From: Vicinamibacterales bacterium
Lineage (GTDB): Bacteria > Acidobacteriota > Vicinamibacteria > Vicinamibacterales > SCN-69-37
Direction: 5' to 3'
Assembly (NCBI GenBank): GCA_040902895.1
Contig: JBBDWL010000084.1
Location: forward strand, 19,425 to 83,424
Length of the DNA: 64,000 nucleotides
Below the pieces are notes generated by a model. The model was not told the origin of the DNA. It saw only the letters and a program-made list of their open reading frames with translations, and did not search any database. Numbering within the stretch: position 1 is the stretch's first letter; every line of letters begins with the position of its first letter. This document shows positions 9,217 through 35,072 of the stretch, piece by piece. The position numbers were made by a program, and so were the translations under genes.

Positions 9217-9241
9217 AGCGCCTTCGCGCATTAACGTTGCA

Positions 9242-10417: not shown

Positions 10418-10423
10418 CGCGAC

Positions 10424-14586: not shown

Positions 14587-14587
14587 G

Positions 14588-15511
14588 TCAGTACCGCAAC
14601 GCCACCACGATGTGCACGCCGGCCAGCACCAGCAACGCGATCGAGACCGGCACGTGCACGAGCTGCCATGCATGCAGCAGCCGGTGCAGGCGCGCCTGCT
14701 CCATCAGCTGGCGCTCTTCCTCGCAGATGTTCTCCAGATCCGCGATCGACGGATGAAAGGTCGGCGGCACCAGTGCGCGCACCTTCTCGAACCGTAATGC
14801 CGACTGCGGACGATCGGCGAGCGGGTGCCGCGGCGTCGGCGCGTCGACGAACGGACGCATGTCTCGCGCATAGAACTCGCGTACCGGCGCTGATTCCTCA
14901 GCGTCAATCCGCGCGGTGCTGGCAAGCGCGGAGGCCGCCTCGTTCGCCATCACGCCCAGCCTCGCCTGTGCCGACGCGGCAGGAGCGCCCGGCGCCACGG
15001 TTTCGACCTCCAGCCGGCCGCACGCGTCCGCGACGATGGTGTCGGCCTCGGCGAGCAGCTGCGCTCGCACGTGGTCAATCTGATCGAAGATCGTTTCCAT
15101 CGGCACTTCGCGCAGCATGCGGCGCGGCAGGGTGTGCTGCAGGTACGCGCCCAGCAGTCCGCTGACGATGACGAACACGAAAAGCCACATCAGTACGAAC
15201 GTCAGCCCGGTGCCGAATGACAGCCCTGCGTGCAGCACGATCACGGGAAAGCTCAACATGCCGAGCCACAGGTGCCCCCGCATCCACGTTTGCGCGCGAC
15301 CGATGCGCCAGATCGGAAACTTCTTCCGCGCGCCGAGCAGTCCGGCATAGAGCATCATGCCGAACCCGGCGATGCCGAACGCCAGTCCCGGCACGGTGCC
15401 GCCGCCGGGTGATGCCACCGACGCCGTATAGATCGCATAGAGCACCACTGACGCGGCGAACAGCCCCGCGGTCGCGACGGCCCAGCGGCGATGCGTGTGG
15501 TCGATCAACAC
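14588..15511 (-). CDS. Five-TM membrane protein, predicted dihaem b-type cytochrome
   Basis: 307 aa with a GTG start at 15511, 5 nt after the upstream TAA. TM3 (HLWLGMLSFPVIVLH) and TM5 (HVPVSIALLVLAGVH) each carry two His exactly 14 residues apart (H-x13-H), as in bis-His dihaem cytochromes b. A loop of about 150 aa between TM4 and TM5 is predicted to be cytoplasmic by the positive-inside rule. No family name recognised. Confidence 0.55.
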   Translation of the reverse strand: MLIDHTHRRWAVATAGLFAASVVLYAIYTASVASPGGGTVPGLAFGIAGFGMMLYAGLLGARKKFPIWRIGRAQTWMRGHLWLGMLSFPVIVLHAGLSFGTGLTFVLMWLFVFVIVSGLLGAYLQHTLPRRMLREVPMETIFDQIDHVRAQLLAEADTIVADACGRLEVETVAPGAPAASAQARLGVMANEAASALASTARIDAEESAPVREFYARDMRPFVDAPTPRHPLADRPQSALRFEKVRALVPPTFHPSIADLENICEEERQLMEQARLHRLLHAWQLVHVPVSIALLVLAGVHIVVALRY

Positions 15512-15516
15512 GGACG

Positions 15517-17706
15517 TTACTTGCTCGTTTCTTCGGTTCCGGCCGCCGGCTCACGCCGGTCCATCGTGACGCCCTGCACCGATGCGAAGAACTGCAGCGG
15601 CTCCACGCGGTGCGCGGCGTCGTGCGGGCACGCATAGACGCAGCTCGGCTCCGCGTGCTCCATGCAGAGATCGCAGCCCGTCGCCTTGCGCGCGGTCGTG
15701 GCGATCTGCCGCCCGGGCTGCGCCGTATCGGGCGCGAGCACCTGGAACGGGTGCATGTTGAGATTGCCGTACGGACAGTTGTTGGCGCACAGGCCGCAGC
15801 CGATGCACCAGTCCTCGATGATGATCTCGAGAGAATTGCGGCGCCGGATGGATCCGACCGGGCATCCCACCATGCAGAGCGGATCGCGGCACTGGCGGCA
15901 CGATGTCGCGACCAGGTACTTGTCGAAGCGCAGCCCTTCGCGCACGAGCCGCGTGACACCATCGTGCGCGTCGGCGCAGGCCTTGACGCATTGATCGCAT
16001 CGCGTGCACTTCTCCAGGTCCAGCAGCAGCAGGCTCTGGGCCTCCATCAGCCCCTGCGAGAGAAAATCGTTGAGCGGCGTGGCTTCGAGCGAGCGGGCGC
16101 GCTGCACGTTCATCGCGGCACGTTCGGCCGCCACCTGCTCGAGGCTCGCGCGGATGTCGGGGAATCGCTCGAGCATCAGCGCAAAGTCCTCCCCCTGGAT
16201 GCGCACGACGTCCACATGATCGAGCGCGGTGCAGGTCGCGGTGCGCACGCCGCCGCCGAGGAGGCCCATTTCGCCGAAATACCCGCCACGCCCCGTGTAC
16301 GTCAGCACGAGCTCCCCGCCGGCGTGGCTCTCCGACACCTTCACGAACCCGAGCCGCACGAGATAGAACGCGTCCGCGGGATCGCCCTGCCGCACGATCA
16401 CATCGCCCGGTGAATACCGCAGCAGCTCCACGCGATCACGCAGGTAGGCGATGAAGTCGGCGGGCATTCCCGAGAAGACGGGCACGCTCTTCAAGTGGGT
16501 GTCGAGCGCGCGCTGGCGATACTGGCGATCGAGCTGCGCGCGGAAGGTCTTGTTCTTCTGGAGGATGTCGAGCACGTTTCGCAACATCTCGAGCGCGACC
16601 ACTTTCGTCTTCGCGCGCACGGTGGCCGACCGCGGATGAAAACTCATGCAGGTCATCTCGCCGAACAGCTCGCCGGCGCCAATCTGCGCGATCGGGTTGT
16701 CGTACGGCAGATCCACCGGCGCATCGATCGGAATCCAGCGCTTCCCCGTTTCCTCCGCGCGCGTGTGCTCCTGGCGGTCCGCGAGCCGGCTTCGGATCCG
16801 CGACAGCCAGCCTTCGTGCGTGTCCTCCTGCTTCACGTGCGCCATCGGCGTGCCGATATACACGTCGACGGTCCCCTCGAGAATGTAGAACGCCGTCGAA
16901 CCGAACTCCCCTTCCCGGCAGATCACATCACCGGGATTGAACTCGCGGCGCACGATGGCGTTGCGATTCAGCTCGAGGAAGGTGCCTGACACGCCCTTGA
17001 ACACTGGCAGCTGCAGCATCCACTCGGCCTCGAGCGCCTCGCCACCGCCCAGCTCGGTGGCAATGACGCGTTTGTTCGTCAGCGCCCCCGTCGGGCAGGA
17101 GACCATGCACTCGCCGCAGGAGACGCAGGTCGAGCTGCCCATCGGCACATTCAGATCGAACGCGATGCCCGCCGCGTAACCGCGGCCGGTCCGCCCGATG
17201 ACGTGGTTCTGCTTCACGTCGTCGCAGCCACGGACGCAGCGATCGCACAGGATGCACGATTCGTGATCGACCGCGATGCTCAGGGACGAATCGTCGCGGC
17301 CGCGCGGCGACAGCCGCCGCGCAAACCGTGGTTCGCCGCCAGGCGCCACCGCGCCCATCTGCGCCGACATCGTCTCGAGCTCGCAGTCGCCGCTCGCCTG
17401 CTGGCGTCCGCATGGCGACGGATGATCCGACATCAGCAATTCGACGAGCGTCCGGCGGGCCTGCTTCACCGGCTCGACATCGGTCTTGACGACCATCCCC
17501 TGGTCGCACTCACGGATGCACGCTGCCGCATACACGCGGGCGCCCACATCCACGACGCAGACGCGGCACACGCCGATCGGTGTTTGATTCTGCTGATGGC
17601 AGAGTGTGGGGATGGGCACGCCGCGCATTCGAGCGGCATCGAAAATCGTGGTGCCTTTCGGGACCGTGACTTCGTTGCCGTCGATGGTGAGGGTGACGGT
17701 GCTCAT
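15517..17706 (-). CDS. Fe-S oxidoreductase fusion: NuoG-type N-terminus (2Fe-2S + 4Fe-4S) / two cNMP-binding domains / C-terminal multi-[4Fe-4S] ferredoxin module
   Basis: ORF 15517..17982 trimmed to the ATG at 17706 (MSTVTLTIDGNEVTVPKGTTIFDAA...), which overlaps the upstream stop (ATGA), giving 729 aa. Motifs: TLCHQQ..CRVC..C (2Fe-2S); HPSPCGRQQASGDC; CILCDRCVRGC; CVSCGECMVSCP; two phosphate-binding cassettes FGEMTCMSFHPRSATVRA and FGEMGLLGGGVRTATCTA; then CTRCDQCVKAC, CRQCRDPLCMVGCP, CIGCGLCANNCP and CDLCMEHAEPSCVYACP. Confidence 0.8.
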   Translation of the reverse strand: MSTVTLTIDGNEVTVPKGTTIFDAARMRGVPIPTLCHQQNQTPIGVCRVCVVDVGARVYAAACIRECDQGMVVKTDVEPVKQARRTLVELLMSDHPSPCGRQQASGDCELETMSAQMGAVAPGGEPRFARRLSPRGRDDSSLSIAVDHESCILCDRCVRGCDDVKQNHVIGRTGRGYAAGIAFDLNVPMGSSTCVSCGECMVSCPTGALTNKRVIATELGGGEALEAEWMLQLPVFKGVSGTFLELNRNAIVRREFNPGDVICREGEFGSTAFYILEGTVDVYIGTPMAHVKQEDTHEGWLSRIRSRLADRQEHTRAEETGKRWIPIDAPVDLPYDNPIAQIGAGELFGEMTCMSFHPRSATVRAKTKVVALEMLRNVLDILQKNKTFRAQLDRQYRQRALDTHLKSVPVFSGMPADFIAYLRDRVELLRYSPGDVIVRQGDPADAFYLVRLGFVKVSESHAGGELVLTYTGRGGYFGEMGLLGGGVRTATCTALDHVDVVRIQGEDFALMLERFPDIRASLEQVAAERAAMNVQRARSLEATPLNDFLSQGLMEAQSLLLLDLEKCTRCDQCVKACADAHDGVTRLVREGLRFDKYLVATSCRQCRDPLCMVGCPVGSIRRRNSLEIIIEDWCIGCGLCANNCPYGNLNMHPFQVLAPDTAQPGRQIATTARKATGCDLCMEHAEPSCVYACPHDAAHRVEPLQFFASVQGVTMDRREPAAGTEETSK

Positions 17707-19400
17707 GACGGACGGTTCCCAGCAGGTGCCGCGAAACAGACGCCGGCGGCGCAGGCGCGGCTGCGGACGTGCGCTTCGACCTCGTCGCCGAAATGCTTCA
17801 TGACCGACGCGATGGGCACGGGCACGACCTGGCCCAGTCCACAAATCGAGGTCAGGCGCAGCGCGTGGCCGAGCTCCTCCATCAGGACAAGATCGTCGGC
17901 GCCGCGAAGTCCCGAAGTCCACGACGTGAGAATGTCGACCAGCTTCTGCGAACCCGTGCGGCACGGCACGCACTTGCCGCATGACTCGTTGCGGAAGAAG
18001 CGCACGGCGTTGACCGCCATGTCGAGCATGCAGGCGCGCTCGTCGCAGACGACAATGGCGCCAGAGCCGACGGTCGCGCCCGCCTGGGTCATGGCTGTCC
18101 AGTCGAGCGGCAGGTCCAGCATCGACTCCGGCAGGTAGCCGCCCGCAGGCCCGGACGGCGCAAACGCTTTGATCGTGTGGCCCGGCAGGGCGCCTCCGGC
18201 GTAGTCGTTGACGATGGCGCGGTAGGGCGTGCCCATCGGCACTTCGTACACGCCGGGGCGCTGCACGTCACCGCTCACGCCAACGAACTTCACGCCGACC
18301 GAACCATCGCGGCCCTGCGCCTTCAGCCAGTCGGTGCCGCGCGCGAGAATCACGGGGACAAAGAAGAACGTCTCGACGTTGTTGATGACCGTGGGTTTCT
18401 GCCAGAGCCCCTGCTGTCCCGGGAACGGCGGCTTGTTGCGCGGCTCCGCGCGCTTGCCTTCGATCGCTTCGAGCAGCGCGCTCTCCTCTCCGCAGATGTA
18501 CAGCCCGGGACTGACGAAGACTTCGAGATCGAACGCGAGATCCGTCCCGAGAATGCGATCGCCGAGCAGCCCCTCGCGGTAGCAGCGCGCGATCTCGCCG
18601 GCCATCACGTGTTCCTGATGCGTGTACTCGTGCCGGATATAGAAGATCCCCTGCCGGGCGCCCGTGACGAGCCCGCCGAGAATCATGCCTTCGATGATCA
18701 GGTGCGGCGCGTGCGTCATCAGGAACCGGTCCTTGATGGTGCCGGGCTCGCTTTCATCCGCGTTGCACACGATGAACTTGTCGGGGCCCGGCTGGGCGCG
18801 CACGATCTCCCACTTCATTCCGGTTGGAAAGCCGGCGCCGCCGAGACCGCGCAGCCCGCTTTCCTTGAGTTTCGCGATGAGCCCCGTCCAGTCGCGCGAT
18901 TGCGCGTACTGGCGCAGCACGCCGTACTGCTCGCCCGCTGCGTACGGATCCGACCGCACGACCGCATGCGGAGGATGCGGCGGCTCCGGCAGCGGCTGCC
19001 CCCCAAGCGCCGTCTGGATCAGCGAAGCCGCAGACGCGTCATCGACGTTCTCGTAGATGACGTCATTGATCGCGATGGCCGGCGCCAGATCGCATCGCCC
19101 AAGACAGGAGACGTGCTGAATGTTGACGTCCTGACCCTGGAAGCGGCGCACGAGGCTGTCGCGGAGGCGGCCGGCGCCGTATCGATGGCAGGACATGTCG
19201 CCGCAGACACGAACTTCGGCGCGTGATGGCGGCGTGAGAAAGAAATGCGGGTAGAAACTGGCCACCGACTGCAGCCGGTACAGCGGCATGTCCAGCTGTT
19301 CTGCGAGCGCGCGCAGGGCGCCCTCAGGCAGGTAGCCATGAACCCGCTGGATGGCGCGAAGCTCATCGAACACGGGTGAGTGCGTGGCGGTCCGATTCAC
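17703..19400 (-). CDS. NuoE-NuoF fusion (NADH-binding FMN/Fe-S flavoprotein module of complex-I/HoxF type)
   Basis: 565 aa. The N-terminal NuoE-like thioredoxin-fold 2Fe-2S domain has VASFYPHF, CGDMSCH and SCLGRCDLAPA. The NuoF part has GLRGLGGAGFPTGMKWE, CNADESEPGT and the N3 cluster ligands ESCGKCVPCRTG. Confidence 0.85.
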   Translation of the reverse strand: MNRTATHSPVFDELRAIQRVHGYLPEGALRALAEQLDMPLYRLQSVASFYPHFFLTPPSRAEVRVCGDMSCHRYGAGRLRDSLVRRFQGQDVNIQHVSCLGRCDLAPAIAINDVIYENVDDASAASLIQTALGGQPLPEPPHPPHAVVRSDPYAAGEQYGVLRQYAQSRDWTGLIAKLKESGLRGLGGAGFPTGMKWEIVRAQPGPDKFIVCNADESEPGTIKDRFLMTHAPHLIIEGMILGGLVTGARQGIFYIRHEYTHQEHVMAGEIARCYREGLLGDRILGTDLAFDLEVFVSPGLYICGEESALLEAIEGKRAEPRNKPPFPGQQGLWQKPTVINNVETFFFVPVILARGTDWLKAQGRDGSVGVKFVGVSGDVQRPGVYEVPMGTPYRAIVNDYAGGALPGHTIKAFAPSGPAGGYLPESMLDLPLDWTAMTQAGATVGSGAIVVCDERACMLDMAVNAVRFFRNESCGKCVPCRTGSQKLVDILTSWTSGLRGADDLVLMEELGHALRLTSICGLGQVVPVPIASVMKHFGDEVEAHVRSRACAAGVCFAAPAGNRPS

Positions 19401-19455
19401 GCGGGGAGTGTTATAGCACGTGGAGCCGGACGAGAGGTGGTGTATAAGAACGTCA

Positions 19456-20826
19456 ATGGTGATTGGTCACGCGCCCGGAGCGCTGATGCTTGCCGCCGTG
19501 GCCGTCTTCAGCGCGTCGTTCACCCACTCGCTTCGCGCGCGCGAAGCTCGACCACCAGCCGCCATCGCGCGAGTCCCCCCCTCTGAGCGCGTACTCGCGC
19601 AGACCGCCGCAGCCTTTACCGGTCCGGGCTCCTGTGCCGCCGCCGCCTGCCATGGCGCCGTTCGCCCCGTTGCCGGCAGCCGGATTCTGCAGACCGAATA
19701 CACGACGTGGATCGCGCAGGACCGTCACGCCGCCGCAACGGAGGTGCTGTCGAATGCCGCGTCGGTGCGCATGGCGCGCATTCTCGGCGTCGGCGACCCA
19801 AAAACCGCCCCCAGATGTCTTGCGTGCCACAGCCTGGACGCGCCTTCGGCGAGCCAGGCGCGTACGTTCGCGAACGAAGGCGTGAGCTGCGAAGCGTGCC
19901 ACGGGCCCGCAAGCCGGTGGCTCGGCCCGCATACCACCAAGGGATGGACGCACGCACAGTCGGTGCAGCTCGGCATGTACGACACGAAGGATGTGGTGAA
20001 GCGCACCGAAAAGTGCCTCACCTGCCACCTGGGCACTCCTGAAAAATTTGTCGACCACGAGATGATCGCCGCCGGGCATCCGGATCTCGTATTCGACCTG
20101 GAAGCCTACAGCGCCGCAATGCCTCGGCACTGGCACGCGGCGACGCCGGCCGATCCCTTTGCTCCGGTGCGGTCGTTCAGCATCGGACAGCTCGTGCACC
20201 TGCGAAATGCGCTCGATCGTCTCGCCCACCGCGCAAAAACGTCGTGGCCTGAATACGGCGAGCTCGATTGTTTCGCCTGCCACCACAGCCTCACACCGGC
20301 AAGCGACAGCTGGCGCCAGGCTGCCGGCTACGAGAACCGACGTCCCGGCAATCCGCCGCTCAACGTCTCGCGCTGGACGACCGCCCAGCATGTGCTGGCG
20401 GCATTCGACGGACAAGCGGCCGATGAGATGCGCCCGGTGATGATTGCCCTGCAGCGCGAGGCGGGCCGGCTTCGCGTGGATGCCGACGCCATCGCCGGTC
20501 AGGTTGCGCGGGCGCGAGGCATCCTCGATCGCGCCATTGGACGCGCCGTCGCCGCGCGGCCTGACGCCGCTGTGGCGCGAAGGTTGCTGCGCGCGATTGC
20601 ATCCGACGCGCCTGCCATCGCGATCCAGGGTGAGCGTGCGGCCGAACAGGCAGCCATGGCCATGGAAACGCTCTACACCGCCACGGCCGGCACCGGCAGC
20701 AACACCGCCGTGCGCACGGCTTTCGACGAGTTGTTCCGGCAGTTCCAAAGTCCCAGCAGCTACGACCCGCGGCGTTTCGTCGCGCAGGTACGGAAACTCG
20801 AGGCCGCTCTTGGCGCGCCGCGCTGA
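19456..20826 (+). CDS. Exported pentahaem c-type cytochrome (cytochrome c554-like family)
   Basis: ORF 19420..20826. I prefer the ATG at 19456 (MVIGHAPGALMLAAVAVFSASF, signal-like), but 19420 is not excluded. Haem motifs: CAAAACH (CX4CH), CLACH, CEACH, CLTCH, CFACH. It is divergent from the NuoEF operon with an intergenic region of about 55 nt. Confidence 0.7.
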   Translation: MVIGHAPGALMLAAVAVFSASFTHSLRAREARPPAAIARVPPSERVLAQTAAAFTGPGSCAAAACHGAVRPVAGSRILQTEYTTWIAQDRHAAATEVLSNAASVRMARILGVGDPKTAPRCLACHSLDAPSASQARTFANEGVSCEACHGPASRWLGPHTTKGWTHAQSVQLGMYDTKDVVKRTEKCLTCHLGTPEKFVDHEMIAAGHPDLVFDLEAYSAAMPRHWHAATPADPFAPVRSFSIGQLVHLRNALDRLAHRAKTSWPEYGELDCFACHHSLTPASDSWRQAAGYENRRPGNPPLNVSRWTTAQHVLAAFDGQAADEMRPVMIALQREAGRLRVDADAIAGQVARARGILDRAIGRAVAARPDAAVARRLLRAIASDAPAIAIQGERAAEQAAMAMETLYTATAGTGSNTAVRTAFDELFRQFQSPSSYDPRRFVAQVRKLEAALGAPR

Positions 20827-22615
20827 GGCTCGACGCCGCGGCATCCGCGCCGGCATCCGGCTTGCCTTCGCACTGGCCGGCATCGTAATCGCGAGCGATC
20901 GCGTCGGCACGCAGAACACACCGGCGAATCGCGCGGGCGGGCCCGCCCGTATTCTCACTGCGGCTGACGTGCGCGCCGTCCTCATCACGGCCGCCACCGC
21001 GCTCGGCGACGACACACTCGCTGCGGCCGTCGTCGATCGCACCGGCAATATCCTCGGCGTCTACGCGCGTCCCGGCGCGGCGGCACGGACGCCGGACATC
21101 GCCGTTTCTCTTGCGCGGACCGGTGCCATGTTCGCGAACGATCAGGCCCCGCTATCGTCCCGCACCGTCCGGTTCATCAGCGGCATTCACTTTCCTCCGG
21201 GTGTCCGGAACACGTCGAACGCCGCTCTGTACGGAGTGGAAAACATCAACCGCGGCTGCACGGTGGACGATGCGGGTGATGCGATCTTCAATGCGCCGTT
21301 TCCGCGGCCGGCATCGATTGAGGGCGCGTTCGGGTCCGGCGCGGACGGAATGCCGCTGCCATGTGAGCCGTCGGACACGCGCGGATGTGCGCGCGGCGGG
21401 CCCATGCGCGATCTCGGGGGACACGAGGTCGAGTCAGTGGGCATCACCACTGGAAAAGCCGATGTGCTCGACACCGGCCAGGATCATCCCGCGACCGTGC
21501 CCGTGAACCCGGGTGGGATCCCGATCTACCGCGAGGGCAAGGTTGTTGGTGGCATTGGCGTCGCCGGCGTGCGGCCCGACTTCGCGGAATTCGCGGCGAC
21601 GCTTGCCGCGGCGGGCTCCGGGCGAGGCCTCGATTTCTCGGAACCGCTTGGCGCGCCGGGCGCGGTGTTCATCGATGGCCTACGCCTGCCGTTTTTCGGC
21701 GGCTGCACGTCAATCCCGTGCATCCGTCAGGCGCTTCGCTCCCGCCCCGCAGGATCCTCGCCTGGCTCGTTCTCGTCTGGCGGCTTCATCGTGGAGCCTC
21801 GCGATGGCCTGCAGGCGCCCGAGCATTATCTGATCGGCCCGCGTGCGAGCACGCGCCCCGGCGGCCTCACGGAAGCGGAGGTTCAGCAGATCGTCGCGCG
21901 AGCCGTCGACGTGTCGCTGCGCACGCGCGCGATGATTCGCCTGCCGTTCAACCAGCCGGCGCGCATGACGATGGGCATTTCGGATGAGGATGGGGAAATC
22001 CTCGCGCTCTATCGCATGCCCGACGGCACCGTGTTCTCGTCAGATGTCGCGATGACCAAGGCGCGCAACGCGTATTACTTCAGCACGCGCGAGGGATACG
22101 AGGTGCTGCGCGGCTATGCCGAGACGAATCCGCACGAGCCGTATCGGTGGGAGCCGGAACCGCCGGCCGGGCAGGGATGGGCGGTGACGGCGCGCACCCT
22201 CAGCTTCGGCGGACAGCCCCTGTTTCCGCCCGGCGTCGACCTGGAGGAACAGCTGCATGGCGAGGAGCCGAAGCCGGGGCCCTTCTTCGATCTCTTCGTC
22301 TATGACACGGTGAATCCATGCACGGAAGGCCCGGGTCCGAGCCGCGGCGGCAACCGCGCCTATCTCAATCAAAGCGGGATCGTCTGGTTTCCCGGCAGTG
22401 TGCCGCTGTATCGCGACGGGCGCCTGATTGGAGGATTAGGCGTCAGCGGTGACGGCGTGGAACAGGACGACTATGTCTCGCTGCTGGCCAGCGAAGGTTT
22501 CCACCCGCCGGCGGCGCTGCGCGTCGACAACAGCGTCATGCGCGACTCGCATGGCCGCGCCGTGCGCCTGCCGTATCTGAAGCTTCCGCGGGTTCCCCAA
22601 ATTCCACGGCGTTAG
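20810..22615 (+). CDS. Exported protein with two GlcG/HbpS-like (DUF336) putative haem-binding domains
   Basis: ORF 20444..22615 overlaps the preceding cytochrome gene for 380 nt. No in-frame ATG precedes the signal-like segment RRRGIRAGIRLAFALAGIVIA, so the best candidate start is the TTG at 20810 (start uncertain). The DUF336-like signature appears twice: ...DRTGNILGVYARPG...NPGGIPIYREGKVVGGIGVAG and ...DEDGEILALYRMPDG...FPGSVPLYRDGRLIGGLGVSGDGVEQDD. Confidence 0.6.
   Translation: MARRAEARRRGIRAGIRLAFALAGIVIASDRVGTQNTPANRAGGPARILTAADVRAVLITAATALGDDTLAAAVVDRTGNILGVYARPGAAARTPDIAVSLARTGAMFANDQAPLSSRTVRFISGIHFPPGVRNTSNAALYGVENINRGCTVDDAGDAIFNAPFPRPASIEGAFGSGADGMPLPCEPSDTRGCARGGPMRDLGGHEVESVGITTGKADVLDTGQDHPATVPVNPGGIPIYREGKVVGGIGVAGVRPDFAEFAATLAAAGSGRGLDFSEPLGAPGAVFIDGLRLPFFGGCTSIPCIRQALRSRPAGSSPGSFSSGGFIVEPRDGLQAPEHYLIGPRASTRPGGLTEAEVQQIVARAVDVSLRTRAMIRLPFNQPARMTMGISDEDGEILALYRMPDGTVFSSDVAMTKARNAYYFSTREGYEVLRGYAETNPHEPYRWEPEPPAGQGWAVTARTLSFGGQPLFPPGVDLEEQLHGEEPKPGPFFDLFVYDTVNPCTEGPGPSRGGNRAYLNQSGIVWFPGSVPLYRDGRLIGGLGVSGDGVEQDDYVSLLASEGFHPPAALRVDNSVMRDSHGRAVRLPYLKLPRVPQIPRR

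Positions 22616-24534: not shown

Positions 24535-24536
<2 letters not shown>
23424..24536 (-). CDS. MIP-family aquaporin fused to a C-terminal cNMP-binding domain
   Basis: ORF 23424..24599 with the start at ATG 24536 (MADGYY...); ATG 24509 is an alternative. Six TM helices with both NPA boxes ([18 protein letters not shown]). A Cys/His-containing linker ([19 protein letters not shown]) follows, then the cNMP domain [24 protein letters not shown]...[18 protein letters not shown]. Confidence 0.85.
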
Positions 24537-27194
<2,658 letters not shown>

Positions 27195-27207
<13 letters not shown>

Positions 27208-29255
27208 CTTCAGCCGTTCTGGCGGTCCTGCTCGTTGCCGTGCCGTGTGTCGCGCAGACGATTCCCGGCCAGGCCGCGCGCGCGGCGTCGATTCATGGCG
27301 TGGTGCGCGCCGAAGACGGCCGCGCGGTGCCCGGCGCGACGATCGAGCTGCGCCAACATGCCGCATCCGGCCGCCCCGTCGCCTTTCCTGGCACGCGCCG
27401 CACCCTGACCTCCGCTGACGGCATCTTCCGCTTCCTCAACGTGTCTGCCGGCGATTACACGCTGACGGTGGTCGCCGAAGGCTTCGAGCCGCTCACGCGT
27501 GCGGACCTTCGTCTCGGCCGCTCGGAACTGGTGACAACGGAGCTTGTGCTGCGCCGCGTGGCCGGCACCGGCGCCGCCGCACCGGCTGCGACGCCTGAAC
27601 CCGAAACGCGCTACGGCCGTGTGGTGCGCCCGCGTACGCCATCAACCGGCGAAGCGGTGCCCCTGCCGCCCGACGAGAAAGTGTTCATGCCGATTCCGGA
27701 TCGCTGGAATCTGCCGATGCCCGACTGGGACCGTTATGGATCGGGCGGCGACTATCCCTACGTCAGCGGACGATGGTGGGACCCATACAACACGAATGTG
27801 CTCAAGGGTGATCGGCCGATCATCGGCAACCGGACGTTCCTGACGTTCCTCGGCGTCAGCGACACGCTGTTCGAAGGCCGCAATCTTCCAACACCCAGCG
27901 GTGTCTCGACCAACCGCCCGGGCAGTGAGCCATTCTTCGGCCGGGGCGGCCAGTACTTTCCCGTCACGGTCGTCCGAACGTCCATCGATCTGTTTCGCGG
28001 CGATACGGCATACCGGCCGGTCGACTGGCGCATTCGCGTGCAGCCCGCCTTCAGCCTGAACTTCATCAACACCGCGGAGTATGGCGCGGTGAACTTCGAC
28101 GTGCGCCGGCGATCGAACCGCCTGTCATCGCACATCGGACTGCAGGAAGCCTTCGGCGAGGTCAAGATCGCAGACCTGAGCAGCAACTACGACTTCATCT
28201 CGGTTCGCGCGGGCATCCAGGAGTTCAGCAGCGATTTTCGCGGTTTCGTCTCCGTGCTTGAGGCGCCCGGGGTGCGGGTGTTCGGCACGCTCGCGTCCAG
28301 CCGCATCGAATTCAACGCGGTGTATTTCGATCTGCTCGAAAAGGAAACGAACAGCGGCTTCAACGAGTGGAAGCGCCGCGACCAGCAGGTCTGGATTGGG
28401 AACGTCTACATTCAGGACTTCATCAAGCCGGGCTATACGACGTCTTTCAGCTTCCACGCCAACCGCGATCACGGCCACGAGCACTACGACCACAACGGCT
28501 TTCTCGTCCGCCCCGCGCCGATCGGCATCATCGTCGAGAACACGGTGCATGCCTACTATCTCGGGTGGGCCGGCAACGGACATCTCGGCCGGTGGAACGT
28601 CAGCCATGCGTTCTATCAGGCATTCGGGCATGAGTCGACCAATCCGATCGCCGCGCAGCGCGTCGACATCAACGCGCGGATGGCGGCGGCCGAAGTGTCG
28701 ATCGACAAGGACTGGCTGCGCATCAAAGGCGCGTTCTTCTATGCGACGGGCGATGCCGATCCTGGCGATGACGAGGGATCCGGGTTCGACGCCATCGTGG
28801 ATATTCCGGTCTTCGCGGGCGGGCCGTTCAGTCTCTGGAACCGTCAGGGCCTGAGGCTCGCGCAAACGGGCACGGGCCTTTTGTCGCCGTCAAGCCTGCT
28901 GCCCACGCTTCGCACGAACAAGGATGAGGGGCAGGCGAACTTCGTGAACCCCGGCGTGATGCTGGTGAACGCCGGGCTCGACGTCGAGCTCACGCCGAAG
29001 CTGCGCGCCTTTGCGAACAGCGGCTTTCTGCGGTTCGCACACACCGACTCGATTGAGGCGCTGCTCTTCCAGGGAGACATCCGGCCGAACATCGGGCTCG
29101 ACTACGGGATGGGCTTTCAATTCCGTCCCCCGTTGAGCGATAACATCGTTATCGTCGGAGGCATCGCGGCCATGAAGCTCGGGCAGGGGCTGAAAGACAT
29201 CTACGATCGCGGCCATGTGTTCTCGGCGTTTCTCAACGCGAGGCTCGTCTTCTGA
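27195..29255 (+). CDS. Outer-membrane beta-barrel protein with N-terminal CarboxypepD_reg-like domain (alginate-export/porin-like)
   Basis: 686 aa. Signal peptide [21 protein letters not shown]. An Ig-like regulatory domain ([20 protein letters not shown]...[12 protein letters not shown]) is followed by alternating amphipathic strands, and the protein ends in an aromatic residue (...FLNARLVF). The start overlaps the glucosidase gene by 13 nt and the stop overlaps the next ATG (TGATG). Confidence 0.55.
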
Positions 29256-32200
29256 TGCGGCCTGGCGGCACGCGCATGGTGCTCATCGCAGCGGCGATCT
29301 TCGTCGTCTCGAGCCTCATTTCCTTCCGGGCTGAATTCTCGTCACCGGTCCTGCAGGCCGCGCAGGCGCCGGTTGTGCCTGACGCCGCTGACGCCGTTCC
29401 CGATGCGCAAAGCGCGGGTTGCATCTCGTGTCACACCAACGTTGACGAGGCGTCGATGCATCCGGGCGGCACCGTCAAGATTGGCTGCGCCGACTGTCAT
29501 GGCGGCAATCCGAAGATCGCTGTCGCGGCAGGCGCGGCAGCCGGCTCGACCGCCTACGAGAAGGCGAAGCAGCAGGCGCATCCGACGGCGACCGTCGCGG
29601 CGTTTGCGAAGAGCTCCGCGAATCCGGAGCGCGCCTATACCGAGTGGCTGCGCGAATCGCAGGACTACATCCGCTTCATCAATCCAGGGGATCTGCGCGT
29701 CGCGGATCGCACCTGCGGCACGTGTCACGCGGCGGAAGTCATGAACGTGCGCACGAGCATGATGACGCACGGCGCCATGCTGTGGGGCGCGGCGCTCTAC
29801 AACAACGGATCCGTTCCGTTCAAAGATCCCCGCTACGGCGAGAGTTACGCACCGGACGGCACGCCGCAGCGTCTGCAGAGCTTCCCGCCACCGACGCCCG
29901 AAGAGACGCGCACGAAAGGCGTGCTGCCGTATCTCGAGCCGCTGCCGCGATGGGAAGTGGTGCAGCCTGGGAACGTGCTGCGCGTGTTCGAGCGCGGCGG
30001 ATTCAAGCGTCCCGAGATTGGCAACCCCACGCGCGTCGAAGAGCCGGGACGCCCCGACGCCAAACTGAGCGATCGCGGGTTCGGCACCCTGCTGCGGACC
30101 GATCCGGTGTTTCTCGGCTTGCAGAAAACACGGCTGCTGGATCCGCTGTTGTCGTTCCCCGGGACGAACGATCAGCCCGGGGACTACCGCGGCAGCGGGT
30201 GCACGGGATGCCACGTCGTGTATGCGAACGATCGATCGCCGGTTCACTCCGCGCAGTACGCGCCGTTCGGCAACCGCGGGCTGACGCAGACGGCCGACCC
30301 GACGATCAAGCGAAACGAGCCTGGGCATCCGATCACGCACACCTTCACCCGATCCATCCCGTCGAGCCAATGCATGACCTGCCACATGCACCCCGGGACG
30401 AACATGGTGACCACGTACTACGGCTATACGTGGTGGGAAAACGAGACCGACGGCAAGGTGATGTACCCCGCGCACGAGCTCGATCGCAGTGAGGCGGAGC
30501 GCGCGCGGATCCGCGAACGTAATCCGGAAGGATCTGCGTTACGTGGGCTGTGGGGCGACGTCGAGTTTCTCGCCAAGACCGGGACGCCGGAGTTCAACAC
30601 GCAGCTGCAGCAGACGCAGTTCGCCGACTTCCATGGCCACGGCTGGGTCTATCGCGCGGTGTTCAAGCGCGATCGGGAGGGCAACCTGCTCGACCGCCGC
30701 GGCAACCTCGTGCCGTACACCGATCCGGACAAGTTCGGCAAGGCCGTGCATCTCAAGGACATTCACCTCGAGAAGGGGATGCAGTGCATCGACTGCCACT
30801 TCGGGCAGGACAATCACGGCAATGGCAAGTTGTATGGCGAGACGCGCAACGCCGTCGAGATCGACTGCGTCGACTGCCACGGCACGGCCCAGAAACGCCC
30901 GACACTGATGACGAGCGGTCCCGCGGCCCCGCCCGGCGGCGGGACGACGCTCATGGCGCTGCGGACGCCCTTCCGCGAGCGGCGCTTCTTCTGGGAAGGC
31001 AATCGCCTGTTCCAGCGATCGATGATGGACAAGGATCTCGAGTGGGAGATCCGCCAGGTGGTCGATGCCGTCACCCCAGGCAACGCGACCTACAACGAGC
31101 AGGCGCGCCTCGCGAAAACGATCCAGAAGGACGGCCAGACGTGGGGTGCTGCCGCCGCGGCGCCTGACACGCTTGCGCACGCCAACGAGAAAATGACGTG
31201 CTATTCGTGCCACACGTCGTGGACGCCGACCTGTCTCGGCTGCCACTTGTCGATGAGCGCGAACCGCAAGACGCCCATGCTCCACAACGAGGGCCTCGAG
31301 ACGCGCAACTGGACGTCGTACAACTTCCAGGTGCTGCGCGACGATTCGTTCTTCCTCGGCAAGGATGGCACCGTCACGGGGAACCGCATCGCGCCCGTGC
31401 GATCGGCGTGCGCCGTCCTCGTGAGCTCCCAGAGCCAGTCGCGAGCGTGGCTCTATTACCAGCAGCAGACGATCTCCGCCGAAGGCTTCAGCGGCCAGGC
31501 CTTCAGCACGTTCGTGCCGCATACCGTGCGCACCACCGAGACCAAACGGTGCACCGACTGCCACGTGTCAGCCGCGGGCGACAACAACGCCTGGATGGCC
31601 AACCTCCTGCTGCAGGGCACGAATTTCATGAACTTCCTCGGCCACAACATCTGGGTGGCCGCCGGGACAACGGGGTTCGAGGGTGTCACGGTTGCCGAGC
31701 GCGATGAACCGCCCGCCATCATCGGCAGCGATCTGCACAAGCTCGCGTATCCGTCGGAGTACAAGAAGCATGTCGCGGGAGGGCGCACGCTCGCACACGC
31801 GCACCACCATCCCGGCGAAAACGTGCTCGACGTGCAGCAGCGCGGCGAGTACGTGTATGCGGCGCTGGGGCCGGGGGGCTTCCGCGTGTATGACGTCGCG
31901 AACATCGACAACAAGGACTTCAGCGAGCGCATCGTGACGGCGCCGGTCTCGCCGCTCGGCCAGCGCCTGTACGTGAAAACGAAGTACGCGACCGCCGTCG
32001 CCACGCCCACCACGCTTGGCGTCGATCCATTGCGCACGCGATTCCCCGAGAACGAAGAGGGACCGATTCACCTGATGTACGGCTTCCTCTACGTCGCCGA
32101 CCGCGACGAAGGCCTCATCGTCGTCGGCAATCGCGATCCGAAGAGCCGCAACCTGCTTGGCGTCGGCACGCTGCTCGACGGCAACCCATCGAACAACTTC

Positions 32201-33049
32201 CTGGATCGGGCGGTGACATTCAATCCCGGGGGGGTGCTGACAGGTGCGCGGCGGATCACAATCGCCGGCACCTACGCGTACATCCTCACGGACACGGCAC
32301 TCGTCGTCGTAAGCCTCGAGAATCCGCTCGCGCCGAAGGTGACGGCGCACATCGGGGCGCCGGATCTGATTGATCCGCGCGGCATCGCCGTCCAGTTCCG
32401 TTACGGGTTCGTGGTGGATCGCGACGGGTTGAAAGTGCTGGATGTGTCATCGCTCGCGCAGCCCCAGGTCGTACGCGGCGCGCGTGTGCCGTTCAAGGAC
32501 GCGCGCAACGTCTATCTCGCGCGAACGTACGCGTACGTGGCGGCCGGACATGACGGTCTCGGCATCGTGAACATCGGCAAGCCGGAGCAGCCGGTGCTCG
32601 ATCAGCAGTTCAACGCCGGCGGCGCGCTCGATGACACGAACGACGTGAAGGTGGGCATGACCAATGCGAGCCTGTTCGCCTACGTCGGCGACGGCCACAA
32701 CGGCCTGCGGGTCGTGCAGCTGTTCTCGCCAGAGACGAACGAGAACCATTACGGATTCAGCCCGCGTCCCACGCCGGTGCTCATCGCCTCGTACCCGATG
32801 CATGGCGGCGCGCTGATGGTGTCGGAAGGGATCGACCGCGATCGCGCCGTCGACGAGAGCGGTAATCAAATCGCCGTCTTCGGCCGTCGCGGCGCGAGGC
32901 CGTTCAACAAGGCCGAAGCCGAGAAGCTCTTCATGCGCTCGGGCCGGGTGTACACCGTGACGAATGATCCGCCGCGTCCCGCAGTAGACGAGACGCAGGG
33001 CCTGTTCGCCACGCTGCGCTCGTATTGGCGCCGATACGGATGGCAGTGA
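29255..33049 (+). CDS. Decahaem c-type cytochrome fused to a C-terminal LVIVD-repeat beta-propeller
   Basis: 1264 aa with N-terminal signal/anchor [17 protein letters not shown]. Ten CXXCH motifs lie in the first ~760 aa: CISCH, CADCH, CGTCH, CTGCH, CMTCH, CIDCH, CVDCH, CYSCH, CLGCH, CTDCH. The C-terminal ~480 aa carries about six LVIVD-like repeats: [42 protein letters not shown]. Confidence 0.8.
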
Positions 33050-33050
33050 G

Positions 33051-35072
33051 GTGCTGAGAAAAGTCGCGGCCGGTCTGCTGCTCGGTCTGTGCGCCGCGGC
33101 GTTCGTGCTGCTGCCTGGATGGATCGGCCTGCTCGATCTTCCTGAGCTCAAGACGTACGACTGGCGCGTCCGTCGCGTCGCCCGAGCCGATTCCGTGCAC
33201 CGCGACATCGTCCTTGTCGAAATCAACGACGAGAGCATCCGCGCCGTCGCGAAGGTCGGTGGGCGCTGGCCGTGGCCGCGTGTGGTGCTGGCCGATGCCA
33301 TCGACTTCCTCAAGCGCGGCTCTCCAAAAGCGATTGCGGTCGACTTTCACATCGCAGAGCCCGACATGAGCGAGGGCGTTCCGTACGGCGGCGACACGTG
33401 GTCCGGCGCGGAGTCAGACGCGGCGCTCGTCGAATCGGTCAGGAACACGCCCCGCATCATCATGCTTGCAGACGCCGTCCATCTCGGCGTCGTCGGCGGC
33501 TCTGCCGATCGCGAGGGTGCGTGGACGAGCCCGCCCTACCGGCTCGGCCCTGCGATCGAAGAGCGGCCGCAGCTGGTTCCGCCGATACCCGGCCTCGCGC
33601 AGGCCGCCGCGCTCGGCCACAACCTGCTTCACCCTGACAGGGACGGCCCCGCGCGCAGGATGGCGCCGTTCATCCGAATCGGCGATCGCTACGTGCCGTC
33701 GCTCGGCGTCGCGGCCGCGCTCGTTGCTGCGGATGTGAAACCGGAAGAAGTCGTCCTCGAGGGACGCACGATCCGGGTGCGCGATCGCGTGATCCCGCTC
33801 GTCGCCGAGCGCGTGCCCAACTGGAACGACGCCTCCGAGTCGCACGATCAGCTGACAATGCTGATCAACTACAGGGCGCCTGCGATCGTGAACGGCGCGC
33901 GGCCGTACACGTCGTACGAGATCCGCGATCTACTGGTGTCGCAGGAGCAGCTCAACGCCGGCATGGCGCCGGTGCTCGATCCTGCAGTGTTCAAAGACAA
34001 GATCGTGTTCGTCGGTCTCACGGCATCGGGGCTGCTCGATGTCTTCACCACGCCGTTCGGTGAAGGCGTCATGCCGGGCATTCAGCTGCATGCGAGCATG
34101 GCCGACGGCATCCTGTCGGATCGTTTCATCAGGCCGGCGCCCGACGCCGCGCGAATCGCGGGAACGCTGGCCGCGGGCCTCGTCGTCGCGCTCATGGCAA
34201 CGACACTCCCTTATGCCGCGGCTGCGGCCGGCGCGGTGGTCGTCACGGGCGGGTGGCTCTGGCTGTGCTTCCTCGTGTTCCGCGACGGCATCTGGCTCAA
34301 CATGTCGCAGCCGATCATCGCCGGCGCCGTGGCGCTCTTTGCGGGCACCGCGTACCAGTATTTCGTCGAAGGCGCCGAGAAGCGCGCGGTCAAGAAACTG
34401 TTCGGACGCTACGTCTCAAAGGATGTCTACGAGCAGCTGGTTGCCAATCCCGAGCTCGCGCAGCTCGGAGGAAAACGCCGCGAGATGTCGGTGCTGTTCT
34501 CGGACATCCGCGGCTTCACGACCGTGACCGAGCAAGGCGATCCCGAAGAGCTCGTGTTGATGCTCAATGAGTATTTCTCCCGGATGGTCGCCATCGTGTT
34601 CCGGCAGCAGGGCACGGTCGACAAGTTCGTCGGCGATATGGTCATGGCCCTGTTCGGCGCGCCGCTCGATGACCCGGCGCACGCCGAGCATGCGGTGGCC
34701 ACGGCGGTGGACATGGTGCGCGAGCTCGGCGAGCTGAACCGTAAATGGGCCGCCGAGGGCCGCACCCAGCTGGATATCGGCATCGGGGTGAATTCGGGAG
34801 GAATGATCGCGGGGAATATCGGGTCGTCCTCCATCATGAGCTACACGGTTATCGGCGACAACGTGAACCTCGGCGCGCGCCTGGAATCGCTGAACAAAGA
34901 CTATCGAACCCGGATTATCATTAGCGACGCGACGCGGTCGCTCCTCCAAGGCCAGTACGAAATCCGTCCGTTGGGCGATGTCGTCGTCAAGGGGAAGACG
35001 CGTCCCGTTGCCATCTTTGAAGTCGTGGTCCCATCGCCGCTGCAGGCGGCACACGAGGAAGCACAGTCATGA
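33051..35072 (+). CDS. CHASE2-sensor class III adenylate/guanylate cyclase
   Basis: 673 aa with a GTG start 2 nt after the upstream stop. TM1 is followed by a periplasmic CHASE2-like region (GGRWPWPRVVLADAIDFL), three TM helices, and the cyclase domain: REMSVLFSDIRGFTT, VDKFVGDMVMALFGAP, GVNSGGMIAGNIGS, YTVIGDNVNLGARLES. The Lys in DKFVGD suggests adenylate specificity (inference). Confidence 0.85.
   Translation: MLRKVAAGLLLGLCAAAFVLLPGWIGLLDLPELKTYDWRVRRVARADSVHRDIVLVEINDESIRAVAKVGGRWPWPRVVLADAIDFLKRGSPKAIAVDFHIAEPDMSEGVPYGGDTWSGAESDAALVESVRNTPRIIMLADAVHLGVVGGSADREGAWTSPPYRLGPAIEERPQLVPPIPGLAQAAALGHNLLHPDRDGPARRMAPFIRIGDRYVPSLGVAAALVAADVKPEEVVLEGRTIRVRDRVIPLVAERVPNWNDASESHDQLTMLINYRAPAIVNGARPYTSYEIRDLLVSQEQLNAGMAPVLDPAVFKDKIVFVGLTASGLLDVFTTPFGEGVMPGIQLHASMADGILSDRFIRPAPDAARIAGTLAAGLVVALMATTLPYAAAAAGAVVVTGGWLWLCFLVFRDGIWLNMSQPIIAGAVALFAGTAYQYFVEGAEKRAVKKLFGRYVSKDVYEQLVANPELAQLGGKRREMSVLFSDIRGFTTVTEQGDPEELVLMLNEYFSRMVAIVFRQQGTVDKFVGDMVMALFGAPLDDPAHAEHAVATAVDMVRELGELNRKWAAEGRTQLDIGIGVNSGGMIAGNIGSSSIMSYTVIGDNVNLGARLESLNKDYRTRIIISDATRSLLQGQYEIRPLGDVVVKGKTRPVAIFEVVVPSPLQAAHEEAQS

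Follow-up and report, generated by a model that had tools for sequence, protein, structure and literature searches.

A conserved gene pair for an outer-membrane barrel and a decahaem-propeller cytochrome in Acidobacteriota, possibly the outer end of an electron-export module

Gene content of the locus

The window analysed here is a stretch of 64,000 nucleotides (nt) from a Vicinamibacterales assembly of the Acidobacteriota phylum (GCA_040902895.1, contig JBBDWL010000084.1, positions 19,425 to 83,424), and its central feature is a pair of plus-strand genes. The first open reading frame (ORF; 27195..29255) encodes an outer-membrane beta-barrel protein of 686 amino acids (aa) with the C-terminus ...RLVF*. 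The second (29255..33049), recognized from its reading frame, Pfam matches and haem motifs, encodes a 1264-aa cytochrome in which ten CXXCH motifs precede an LVIVD beta-propeller, hereafter the decahaem-propeller cytochrome. The two genes meet at TTC TGA TG, where the stop codon (29253-29255) and the ATG (29255-29257) overlap by 1 nt and have the A in common. They belong to a closely packed series of genes for a GH63-like hydrolase, the barrel, the cytochrome, a CHASE2-domain cyclase and an M48 protein, the junctions being, in that order, overlaps of 13 nt and 1 nt, a gap of 1 nt and an overlap of 4 nt.

A preliminary description of the locus had proposed a porin-cytochrome module at the cell surface. 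Its gene anatomy was verified throughout, including both ORFs, the TGATG overlap, the ten CXXCH motifs, six LVIVD-like repeats, the CarboxypepD_reg domain and the C-terminal Phe of the barrel. The signal peptide of the barrel and the N-terminal anchor of the cytochrome were also recovered, as a hydrophobic Sec-type N-terminus in both proteins. Overall, the observation was confirmed, while the interpretation was supported in part.

The outer-membrane barrel protein

The barrel protein possessed a cleavable signal peptide (aa 1-22), conserved in homologs, and a C-terminal outer-membrane protein beta-signal (...NARLVF), with all homologs ending in ...L[VQ]F. A CarboxypepD_reg domain of the transthyretin-like beta-sandwich type (27288..27536, plus strand; aa 32-114) matched Pfam PF13620 with 53.8 bits against a cutoff of 32.3, and was modelled by AlphaFold2 (AF2) as a beta-sandwich at aa 31-119 with a predicted local distance difference test (pLDDT) score of ~85. 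The barrel homologs of three distant loci (L083, L085 and L086) were without this domain, their alignments covering aa ~146-686 only; judged from these alignments, it is a lineage-specific addition in Acidobacteriota.

The sandwich is followed by a Trp/Pro-rich linker (27672..27830, plus strand; aa 160-212), which was kept in distant homologs and showed a column identity of 0.83 against 0.63 in the N-terminal domain, and then by the beta-barrel proper (27831..29252, plus strand; aa 213-686). DSSP assigned ~18 strands to the latter, between aa 213 and 685, on an AF2 model of moderate confidence (pLDDT 60, predicted template modelling score 0.51). The most conserved segment of the barrel was the loop at aa 533-587 (28791-28955, plus strand; column identity 0.91). 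The linker and this loop, the two segments left unplaced by AF2, rank with the best-conserved regions of the protein and are therefore likely functional, whether as plug, as selectivity loop or as docking surface; the linker is a candidate plug or docking element. The protein carried no CXXCH motif and a single Cys (aa 18), located within the signal peptide, and in this it differs from the fused porin-cytochrome Cyc2, which has a haem motif inside its barrel protein.

In Foldseek searches of the barrel model against the PDB, 16 AlgE entries came out on top (E=1.4e-13, template modelling (TM) score on the target 0.57-0.63), followed by the 18-stranded OccD/K, chitoporin, MOMP and maltoporin (E to 1e-7), and MtrB was not among the top 50 matches. 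No Pfam barrel or porin family, including Alginate_exp (PF13372), was matched at E<=1 by any of 42 barrel-family members, and PDB profile searches with the protein matched the N-terminal sandwich and nothing else. As the fold matched but neither Pfam nor the PDB profiles did, the barrel represents a new sequence family with an AlgE-like fold. AlgE and the OprD-family channels OccD/OccK are thus its best structural relatives (E=1e-13 to 1e-7, TM ~0.6, similar strand number), but they differ from it in having no sequence-level kinship, in lacking the CarboxypepD_reg domain and the Trp/Pro-rich linker, and in context, which is redox here rather than exopolysaccharide. No genes for alginate or other exopolysaccharides were found among the annotated large ORFs of the window, and the neighbours of the barrel gene are cytochromes, iron-sulfur (Fe-S) proteins, a cyclase and the GH63-like hydrolase. 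These results speak against the earlier proposal of a porin sheathing a cytochrome, since an ~18-stranded AlgE/OccK-like fold, with MtrB outside the top 50 fold matches, would be too narrow to hold one; a channel or docking site fits better than a sheath.

An identity as a TonB-dependent receptor was ruled out, no Plug, TonB_dep_Rec or OMP_b-brl match being obtained. Two other barrels of the window, unlike this one, were readily detected by Pfam: a canonical TonB-dependent receptor with CarboxypepD_reg, Plug and OMP_b-brl_4 domains (58981-61851, minus strand) and a further OMP_b-brl_4 protein (62013-63953, minus strand).

The decahaem-propeller cytochrome

The cytochrome begins with a Sec-type signal peptide or signal anchor (29255..29335, plus strand; aa 1-27, hydrophobic segment aa 8-26), and the N-termini of its homologs were likewise of Sec type, often with AXA sites. 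Lipobox-like N-termini occurred in ~5% of 240 homologs and were mostly unconvincing, and the first Cys of the window protein is that of haem 1, at aa 56; a lipoprotein surface cytochrome was rejected on these grounds. The C-terminal amphipathic tail was variable or missing among homologs and held no sorting signal. With a conserved lipobox and a sorting tag both missing, the cell-surface location put forward in the preliminary description was not upheld. One distant member, P0265 (1192 aa), does begin with a lipobox-like stretch (…LVIIGC); at its locus (L084), no barrel homolog lies directly upstream.

The haem domain (29420..31564, plus strand; aa 56-770), whose fold is structurally uncharacterised, contained CXXCH motifs at aa 56, 78, 154, 316, 373, 511, 538, 649, 660 and 766. 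All ten are canonical, and no variant haem motif, CXXCK included, was found in the protein. Of the 120 closest homologs, 93 had ten motifs, as did 101 of 120 distant ones. In a deep alignment spanning 40-92% identity, all ten were kept, together with nine invariant and three near-invariant extra His residues in the haem domain; enough invariant extra His are therefore available for bis-His ligation of all ten haems, a pattern that would suit a wire better than an enzyme. A His/Cys-ligated haem through Cys719 (RSACA), which is invariant in Acidobacteriota, was considered and rejected, the residue being Ser in distant members. Another presumed relative, without a propeller (P0313), was set aside as it had no CXXCH and looks like a frameshifted fragment.

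Known families matched this domain poorly. Pfam gave only marginal c3/c7/C554 matches at aa 501-547 and a sub-threshold match to the MtrC domain PF22113 (18.9 bits, cutoff 30); no MtrA/DmsE family match was obtained for the 1264-aa protein, and PDB searches, whether by single sequence or by profile, returned only insignificant NrfA/ONR haem-motif matches (E=0.35-0.46). The closest named family was ExtM (NF040943; GSU2935 of the Geobacter extHIJKLMNOPQS cluster), with E=7e-26 over four matched stretches and a score of 90.7 bits against an NCBIfam cutoff of 800, which distant relatives likewise did not reach. Like the protein studied here, ExtM is a large multihaem cytochrome of the periplasm, and its gene cluster also codes for a porin-like protein and a membrane complex of the cytochrome-b type, but it packs 12 haems into 599 aa and lacks a propeller. 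It is an uncharacterised 12-haem cytochrome of Geobacter (PMC5877670).

The same domain bears on a first alternative, in which the cytochrome would be a specific periplasmic redox enzyme for one small substrate (e.g. an N-, S-, Se- or metal oxyanion), with the barrel as its porin and the relay of partner proteins supplying or removing electrons. Several features are compatible with such an enzyme: sequence conservation is high (65-93% identity across acidobacterial classes and 40-57% in other lineages), haem density is low (0.8 haems per 100 aa, ten in ~760 aa), a local NrfA/ONR-like haem-pair motif occurs, though at E=0.35-0.4, the partial similarity to ExtM leads to a Geobacter cluster linked to selenite/tellurite reduction, and the fold of the barrel is that of substrate-specific 18-stranded channels. 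However, ExtM itself is uncharacterised, the cytochrome has no CXXCK or otherwise atypical haem motif, its invariant His suffice to ligate all ten haems, Cys719 is not kept in distant members and no invariant His or Cys occurs in the propeller. Furthermore, no significant match to a characterised multihaem enzyme was obtained in PDB, Pfam or NCBIfam. This includes characterised pentahaem families and the octahaem ones, of which the preliminary description had named a reductase relative as a possible refutation: NrfA and the octahaem nitrite, tetrathionate and hydroxylamine oxidoreductases showed no significant similarity, and no atypical catalytic haem motif of their kind is present. On balance, a substrate-specific enzyme is considered rather unlikely.

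The propeller (31646..32824, plus strand; aa ~798-1190) was modelled by AF2 with ~7 blades at a pLDDT of 80-95 and gave matches to generic propeller folds only. Pfam LVIVD (PF08309) matched with 58.8 bits against a cutoff of 20.2, one unit alone passing individually, and six LVIVD-like strands were located at about aa 875, 955, 1015, 1058, 1101 and 1150. Among the families named in the preliminary description, LVIVD was thus found in the cytochrome, whereas the Alginate_exp and porin families were absent from the barrel. Surface proteins are where propellers of the LVIVD and choice-of-anchor-B types typically occur. A catalytic metal site in the style of NosZ, NirS or thiocyanate dehydrogenase was rejected, given the generic fold matches and the lack of any invariant His or Cys across the deep family, and with it the suggestion that the propeller is catalytic; the lack of conserved metal ligands instead argues for a docking or binding domain.

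A second alternative is a true porin-cytochrome or surface conduit, as originally suggested, with the cytochrome displayed on the outer membrane or threaded through it and contacting minerals or particulate organic matter. The obligate pairing of a barrel gene with a multihaem gene accords with this, as do the typical surface occurrence of LVIVD propellers and weak matches to MtrC/MtrF domains II/IV in the N-terminal trihaem region, also seen in many homologs. A distant variant of 1648 aa (P0258) has extra N-terminal c7/c3 and MtrC-domain-like haem modules before the decahaem-propeller core, which can be read in the same way. Propellers also lie beside putative outer-membrane cytochromes in the 'EET1' cluster of peat Terriglobales, which comprises a porin, an NHL propeller and a cytochrome c (Fiorito et al. 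2026, bioRxiv 10.64898/2026.05.27.727921), and in Desulfovibrio ferrophilus, again as NHL propellers (PMC5815863). Nevertheless, the barrel is of the ~18-strand AlgE type and not a 26-strand MtrB, which was outside the top 50 fold matches, no compact MtrA-like decahaem partner is encoded beside it, and the cytochrome has neither a conserved lipobox nor a C-terminal sorting signal, its tail being variable or missing. A surface conduit is therefore judged unlikely.

Gene context and recurring module

Synteny was assessed by tblastn of the window proteins against 82 loci, companions being counted within 10 kb of the cytochrome gene. In 76 of them, the gene immediately preceding the cytochrome gene on its strand encoded a barrel homolog, and the remaining six have less than 600 nt of upstream sequence, so that the pair was adjacent in 76/76 testable loci. 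Among four distant loci, the barrel was directly upstream in three (L083; L085, a Ca. Wallbacteria metagenome-assembled genome (MAG); and L086, a Nitrospirota MAG), where proteins of 560-627 aa aligned by BLASTP to aa ~146-686 of the barrel, i.e. the linker and the barrel, at 31-49% identity. Only L084 departed from this arrangement, its upstream protein being an unrelated 1010-aa product that runs to the contig end, with no barrel homolog. Adjacency was thus kept in distant lineages although everything around the pair had been rearranged, and the pairing of the two genes in the preliminary description holds in other genomes, both acidobacterial (76/76 testable) and distant (3/4).

This synteny comes close to refuting the notion that a solute exporter or porin merely neighbours a periplasmic cytochrome by chance. 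The resemblance of the barrel to the polysaccharide exporter AlgE and to small-molecule porins, and the overlap of the barrel start with a glycoside hydrolase gene, would be in keeping with unrelated neighbours. Against this stand the conserved adjacency, the overlapping stop and start codons, an RNA-derived contig that crosses the junction (see below) and the lack of alginate or exopolysaccharide genes nearby; a chance association is accordingly regarded as highly improbable.

The most frequent companions were the HbpS-like protein (62/82 loci), the C554-like multihaem cytochrome (54/82), the cyclic-nucleotide (cNMP)-binding Fe-S protein (53/82), the anchored decahaem cytochrome (49/82), the NuoE/F fusion (48/82) and the DUF4405-like membrane protein (46/82), with the GH63-like hydrolase (31/82) and the CHASE2 cyclase (21/82) recurring less often. 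Four of these form the minus-strand cluster at 13324-19400 of the window. In Terriglobales, a cluster of this type usually starts ~30-350 nt from the stop codon of the cytochrome gene, and in L083, L084 and L086 the core genes are united in a single operon, all running in one direction. All four distant loci contain alignable homologs of the C554-like cytochrome and the membrane protein as well as the ~450-aa cytochrome, and L085 and L086 also one of the HbpS-like protein. A module of about seven genes was therefore delineated, consisting of the barrel, the decahaem-propeller cytochrome, the C554-like cytochrome, the cNMP-binding Fe-S protein, the DUF4405-like protein, the anchored decahaem cytochrome and usually the HbpS-like protein; it was found in Terriglobia, Vicinamibacterales, the Ca. 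Wallbacteria MAG, the Nitrospirota MAG and L083. The NAD(P)H-binding part varied, with a NuoE/F fusion and a HoxU/NuoG-N module in Acidobacteriota and a fused Pyr_redox_2 in the Nitrospirota MAG; none was adjacent in the other distant loci (L083, L084 and L085).

The pair hence belongs to an electron-transfer system, as the preliminary description had supposed. Its link to the cluster at 13324-19400, offered there as speculation, is strongly supported by gene order, the cluster lying beside the pair in Terriglobia and in the same operon in distant lineages, and is the best-supported of all the inferences made in that description. No earlier account of the module was found in the literature on LVIVD/multihaem cytochromes, acidobacterial propellers or cNMP-NuoF-multihaem combinations.

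Partner genes of the module

The minus-strand cluster encodes the putative inner-membrane and cytoplasmic part of the module. Its diaphorase subunit is a fusion of NuoE and NuoF (17703..19400) with FMN/NADH-binding capacity predicted from the Pfam domains Complex1_51K, 2Fe-2S_thioredx and NADH_4Fe-4S and from NCBIfam nuoF_fam (434 bits). The cytoplasmic Fe-S protein that follows (15517..17982, minus strand) combines a HoxU/NuoG-N-like module, three cNMP-binding domains and a HydN/DmsB-like 4Fe-4S module. Its true start is probably Met93, where the similarity to HoxU begins and where the start codon would be coupled through ATGA to the upstream NuoE/F stop at 17706-17703. The part conserved across lineages was the cNMP and 4Fe-4S half (aa ~311-805), and the cNMP-binding domains were within the Fe-S subunit in every lineage examined.

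Next is a polytopic DUF4405-like membrane protein with 5-6 transmembrane helices (14588..15511, minus strand), whose match to Pfam DUF4405 (PF14358) reached 24.6 bits, just under the 26.7 cutoff; one of its homologs in the distant operons gave a faint Ferric_reduct match. DUF4405 proteins bind haem b and resemble MsrQ (PMC11334425), and the window protein is presumed to be a haem-b transmembrane electron carrier. The last gene encodes a decahaem cytochrome anchored by one transmembrane helix (13324..14673, minus strand; 10 CXXCH), with homologs of 421-458 aa, including those in L083-L086. Its start is probably Met30, 1 nt past the stop of the DUF4405-like gene, which would give a protein of ~420 aa.

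On the plus strand, a C554-like periplasmic multihaem cytochrome (19420..20826; four CXXCH and one CX4CH, signal peptide) is likely to relay electrons between the inner-membrane complex and the decahaem-propeller cytochrome; its gene is immediately downstream of the latter in L083, L084 and L086. It is followed by an exported multi-domain HbpS-like protein (20900..22615, start approximate; plus strand), in which four stretches matched Pfam HbpS-like and which might carry haem or a cofactor, or act as a redox sensor. Homologs of this haem-degrading/GlcG-like type were located at 6431-8029 of L085 and 5465-6976 of L086. The CHASE2-domain adenylate/guanylate cyclase (33051..35072, plus strand; CHASE2 178 bits, Guanylate_cyc 96 bits) starts 1 nt past the stop of the decahaem-propeller gene, and a cyclase gene also heads the Nitrospirota operon (L086); it is the probable source of the cNMP signal.

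Distribution and expression

At 90% identity, the homologs found fell into over 7,900 cytochrome and over 6,500 barrel clusters, and with ten CXXCH widely kept a chance origin of the pattern was dismissed. The closest 120 homologs of each protein shared 63-93% identity with it, belonged to Vicinamibacterales, Terriglobia and Acidoferrales and were all annotated as hypothetical; the closest protein relatives of the window pair came from Vicinamibacterales MAGs. A genome scan recovered a relative in at least 579 species-representative genomes. With the haem domain alone as query, 2,852 clusters at 50% identity were retrieved with E<=1e-3, 649 of them with E<=1e-30. Relatives at 41-49% identity retained the haem domain and LVIVD layout, and distant ones occurred in Thermoanaerobaculia, candidate division KSB1, Nitrospirota and Ca. 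Wallbacteria; across these other lineages, cytochrome identity was 40-57%. Two loci binned as Verrucomicrobiia (L059) and Baltobacteraceae (L050) carried cytochromes 67% identical to that of the window with an acidobacterial barrel upstream, and their placement probably reflects mis-binning rather than horizontal transfer.

No RNA run contained the window, which was matched by a sediment metagenome only. In peat, permafrost and wetland metatranscriptomes, on the other hand, homologous Stordalen-type loci were represented by up to 91% of their sampled words. RNA-derived contigs mapped to one locus (L065) covered the entire cluster, and one of them (8959-10939) spanned the barrel/cytochrome junction at ~9851, which is consistent with co-transcription of the two genes in situ.

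A possible route of electron export

The reading favoured here, at a probability of about 0.45, is that the pair forms the outer end of a cAMP-gated export of electrons from NAD(P)H, with the decahaem-propeller cytochrome in the periplasm, docked at a dedicated outer-membrane solute channel. It starts from the gene anatomy, the domains, the fold class of barrel and propeller, the motif conservation and the synteny observed above, from which it is inferred, as follows, where the cytochrome resides and docks, which way electrons flow, that cNMPs gate them and what the acceptor is. The diaphorase (the HoxEFU-like NuoE/F fusion with the HoxU-like Fe-S module) would take electrons from cytoplasmic NAD(P)H and pass them to the Fe-S subunit, whose cNMP-binding domains would gate the flow. 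Electrons would then cross the inner membrane via the DUF4405-like haem-b protein and be received by the membrane-anchored decahaem cytochrome, with the C554-like cytochrome next in the chain and the 1264-aa decahaem-propeller protein, Sec-exported and not a lipoprotein, presumably at its end. The barrel would most likely serve as a dedicated channel and docking site, giving a soluble or colloidal acceptor from outside access to the haems and letting its reduced product out again. Guesses at this acceptor are chelated Fe(III)/Mn(III) and carboxylated organic matter of quinone-like character.

Gating by cAMP or cGMP is suggested by the cNMP domains intrinsic to the Fe-S subunit together with the recurrence of cyclase genes nearby. 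As for the direction, an outward flow is suggested by haem-b proteins of the MsrQ, NOX and ferric-reductase type, which carry electrons of cytoplasmic NAD(P)H out across the membrane, and by the membrane potential, which favours movement of electrons that way. The reverse, in which a donor such as Fe(II), reduced humics or reduced sulfur species enters via the barrel and is oxidised by the decahaem-propeller cytochrome for the reduction of NAD(P)+, would be in line with the reversibility of HoxEFU/NuoEF-type diaphorases, with the presence of the family in Nitrospirota and in groundwater and sediment organisms, and with Cyc2, a small barrel used for Fe(II) oxidation. It is nevertheless quite unlikely: inward flow to NAD+/NADH would, on bioenergetic reasoning, oppose the membrane potential and need a very low-potential donor, the haem-b relatives of the DUF4405-like protein (DUF4405, MsrQ, ferric reductases) export electrons, and the barrel, unlike Cyc2, has no haem motif.

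Several observations weigh against electron export by way of a periplasmic cytochrome. HoxEFU-type diaphorases are reversible, so that electrons may run either way, and the decahaem-propeller family has no characterised member. Its identity of 65-93% across acidobacterial classes would sooner be expected of a specific enzyme than of a terminal reductase with broad specificity. The haem domain was left unmodelled by AF2, which was run without haems (pLDDT 20-50), and may leave room for a catalytic haem of open coordination. LVIVD and choice-of-anchor-B propellers are typical of surface proteins, and one homolog (P0257) gave a weak choice-of-anchor-B match. With a pLDDT of 60 and aa 160-212 and 533-587 unmodelled, the strand count and pore state of the barrel are uncertain. 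Finally, the RNA contigs are assembled and of even depth over 20 kb, which makes DNA carry-over possible.

Acidobacteriota are among the most abundant bacteria of soil and peat, and their survival and respiration without oxygen bear on carbon turnover and methane suppression. If electron export were confirmed, the module would represent a major, so far overlooked means of respiring extracellularly or via shuttles, built differently from Mtr at the outer membrane, and the first respiratory electron relay with cNMP-binding domains built into its Fe-S subunit. A more far-reaching version, possible but doubtful, is that of a cyclic-nucleotide-gated electron valve with which soil and peat Acidobacteriota, and their relatives in KSB1, Nitrospirota and Ca. 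Wallbacteria, may discharge electrons from NAD(P)H across the envelope to chelated metals or to organic matter, dissolved or particulate, the decahaem-propeller cytochrome being docked under a narrow AlgE-like channel instead of threaded through a wide porin. Independently of this, two new protein families (the 18-stranded barrel and the decahaem-LVIVD fusion) have been defined, together with a module of about seven genes that can be put to the test. The module is very widespread, strongly conserved and present in peat and permafrost metatranscriptomes, yet its members are annotated as hypothetical.

Comparison with known systems

With the MtrCAB and Geobacter Pcc/Ext conduits, the system shares a barrel gene adjoining a decahaem gene and an outer end fed by periplasmic and inner-membrane cytochromes. 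It differs from MtrCAB/Pcc in the barrel, a sheath of 20-26 strands there and an AlgE-like barrel of ~18 strands here (in a moderate-confidence model). MtrCAB furthermore combines a compact MtrA-type decahaem protein (~300-350 aa) with a lipoprotein surface cytochrome, neither of which is present here, where a 1264-aa protein with a fused propeller is found instead. Between MtrCAB and the pair there was no significant sequence similarity, only sub-threshold MtrC-domain matches. The pair thus has the logic of a conduit but none of the structural hallmarks of MtrAB/MtrC, namely a wide barrel, an MtrA-type partner and a lipobox, in agreement with the remark in the preliminary description that neither protein resembles MtrB or MtrA.

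A barrel, a beta-propeller and a multihaem cytochrome in a conserved cluster are also found in the EET1 and D. ferrophilus clusters, whose function is inferred, and EET1 comes from the same phylum and habitats. In both, however, these are three separate genes, with an MtrB-like porin and an NHL/DUF5128 propeller, whereas the locus described here has an LVIVD propeller fused to the cytochrome, an AlgE-like barrel and a cNMP-gated, NAD(P)H-linked inner-membrane relay as predicted parts of the module. Identity with the published EET1 cluster was rejected, EET1 having a separate MtrB-like porin, NHL propeller and cytochrome c.

The inner-membrane part recalls MsrQ with Fre, NOX, ferric reductases and the Desulfovibrio Tmc/Hmc complexes, which have a similar layout, with an Fe-S or flavin module on the cytoplasmic side, a polytopic protein carrying haem b and a multihaem cytochrome in the periplasm. 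These systems are without cNMP domains built into the Fe-S subunit and without a HoxEFU-type diaphorase, both features of the present module.

Other genes of the window

The gene of the GH63/MGH1-like glycoside hydrolase (24535-27207, plus strand), a cytoplasmic enzyme and so a surprising companion of a redox module, overlaps the barrel start by 13 nt, and its recurrence near the cytochrome gene includes Terriglobia. Cyclic-nucleotide genes were present at four places in the window (33051-35072, 15517-17982, 23424-24599 and 36252-37712), namely the CHASE2 cyclase gene and three genes whose products carry fused cNMP-binding domains: the Fe-S subunit, with three copies, a MIP aquaporin and an MscS-type mechanosensitive channel. 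The cNMP genes, together with the GH63/MGH1-like protein, which belongs to a family of compatible-solute hydrolases, hint at a cAMP-coordinated osmotic or rewetting and redox response.

Further downstream, two tandem plus-strand genes with overlapping ends (45732-47960 and 47957-50167) each encode a sulfatase domain fused with a long TPR region; the large ORFs that follow (50233-52839 and 52836-53615) had no Pfam match. At the other end of the window, a minus-strand gene (82-2430) encodes an aldehyde:ferredoxin oxidoreductase of the tungsten/molybdopterin type (318 and 138 bits). Such enzymes are typically anaerobic and of low potential, and the presence of one in a Vicinamibacterales-like genome is notable.

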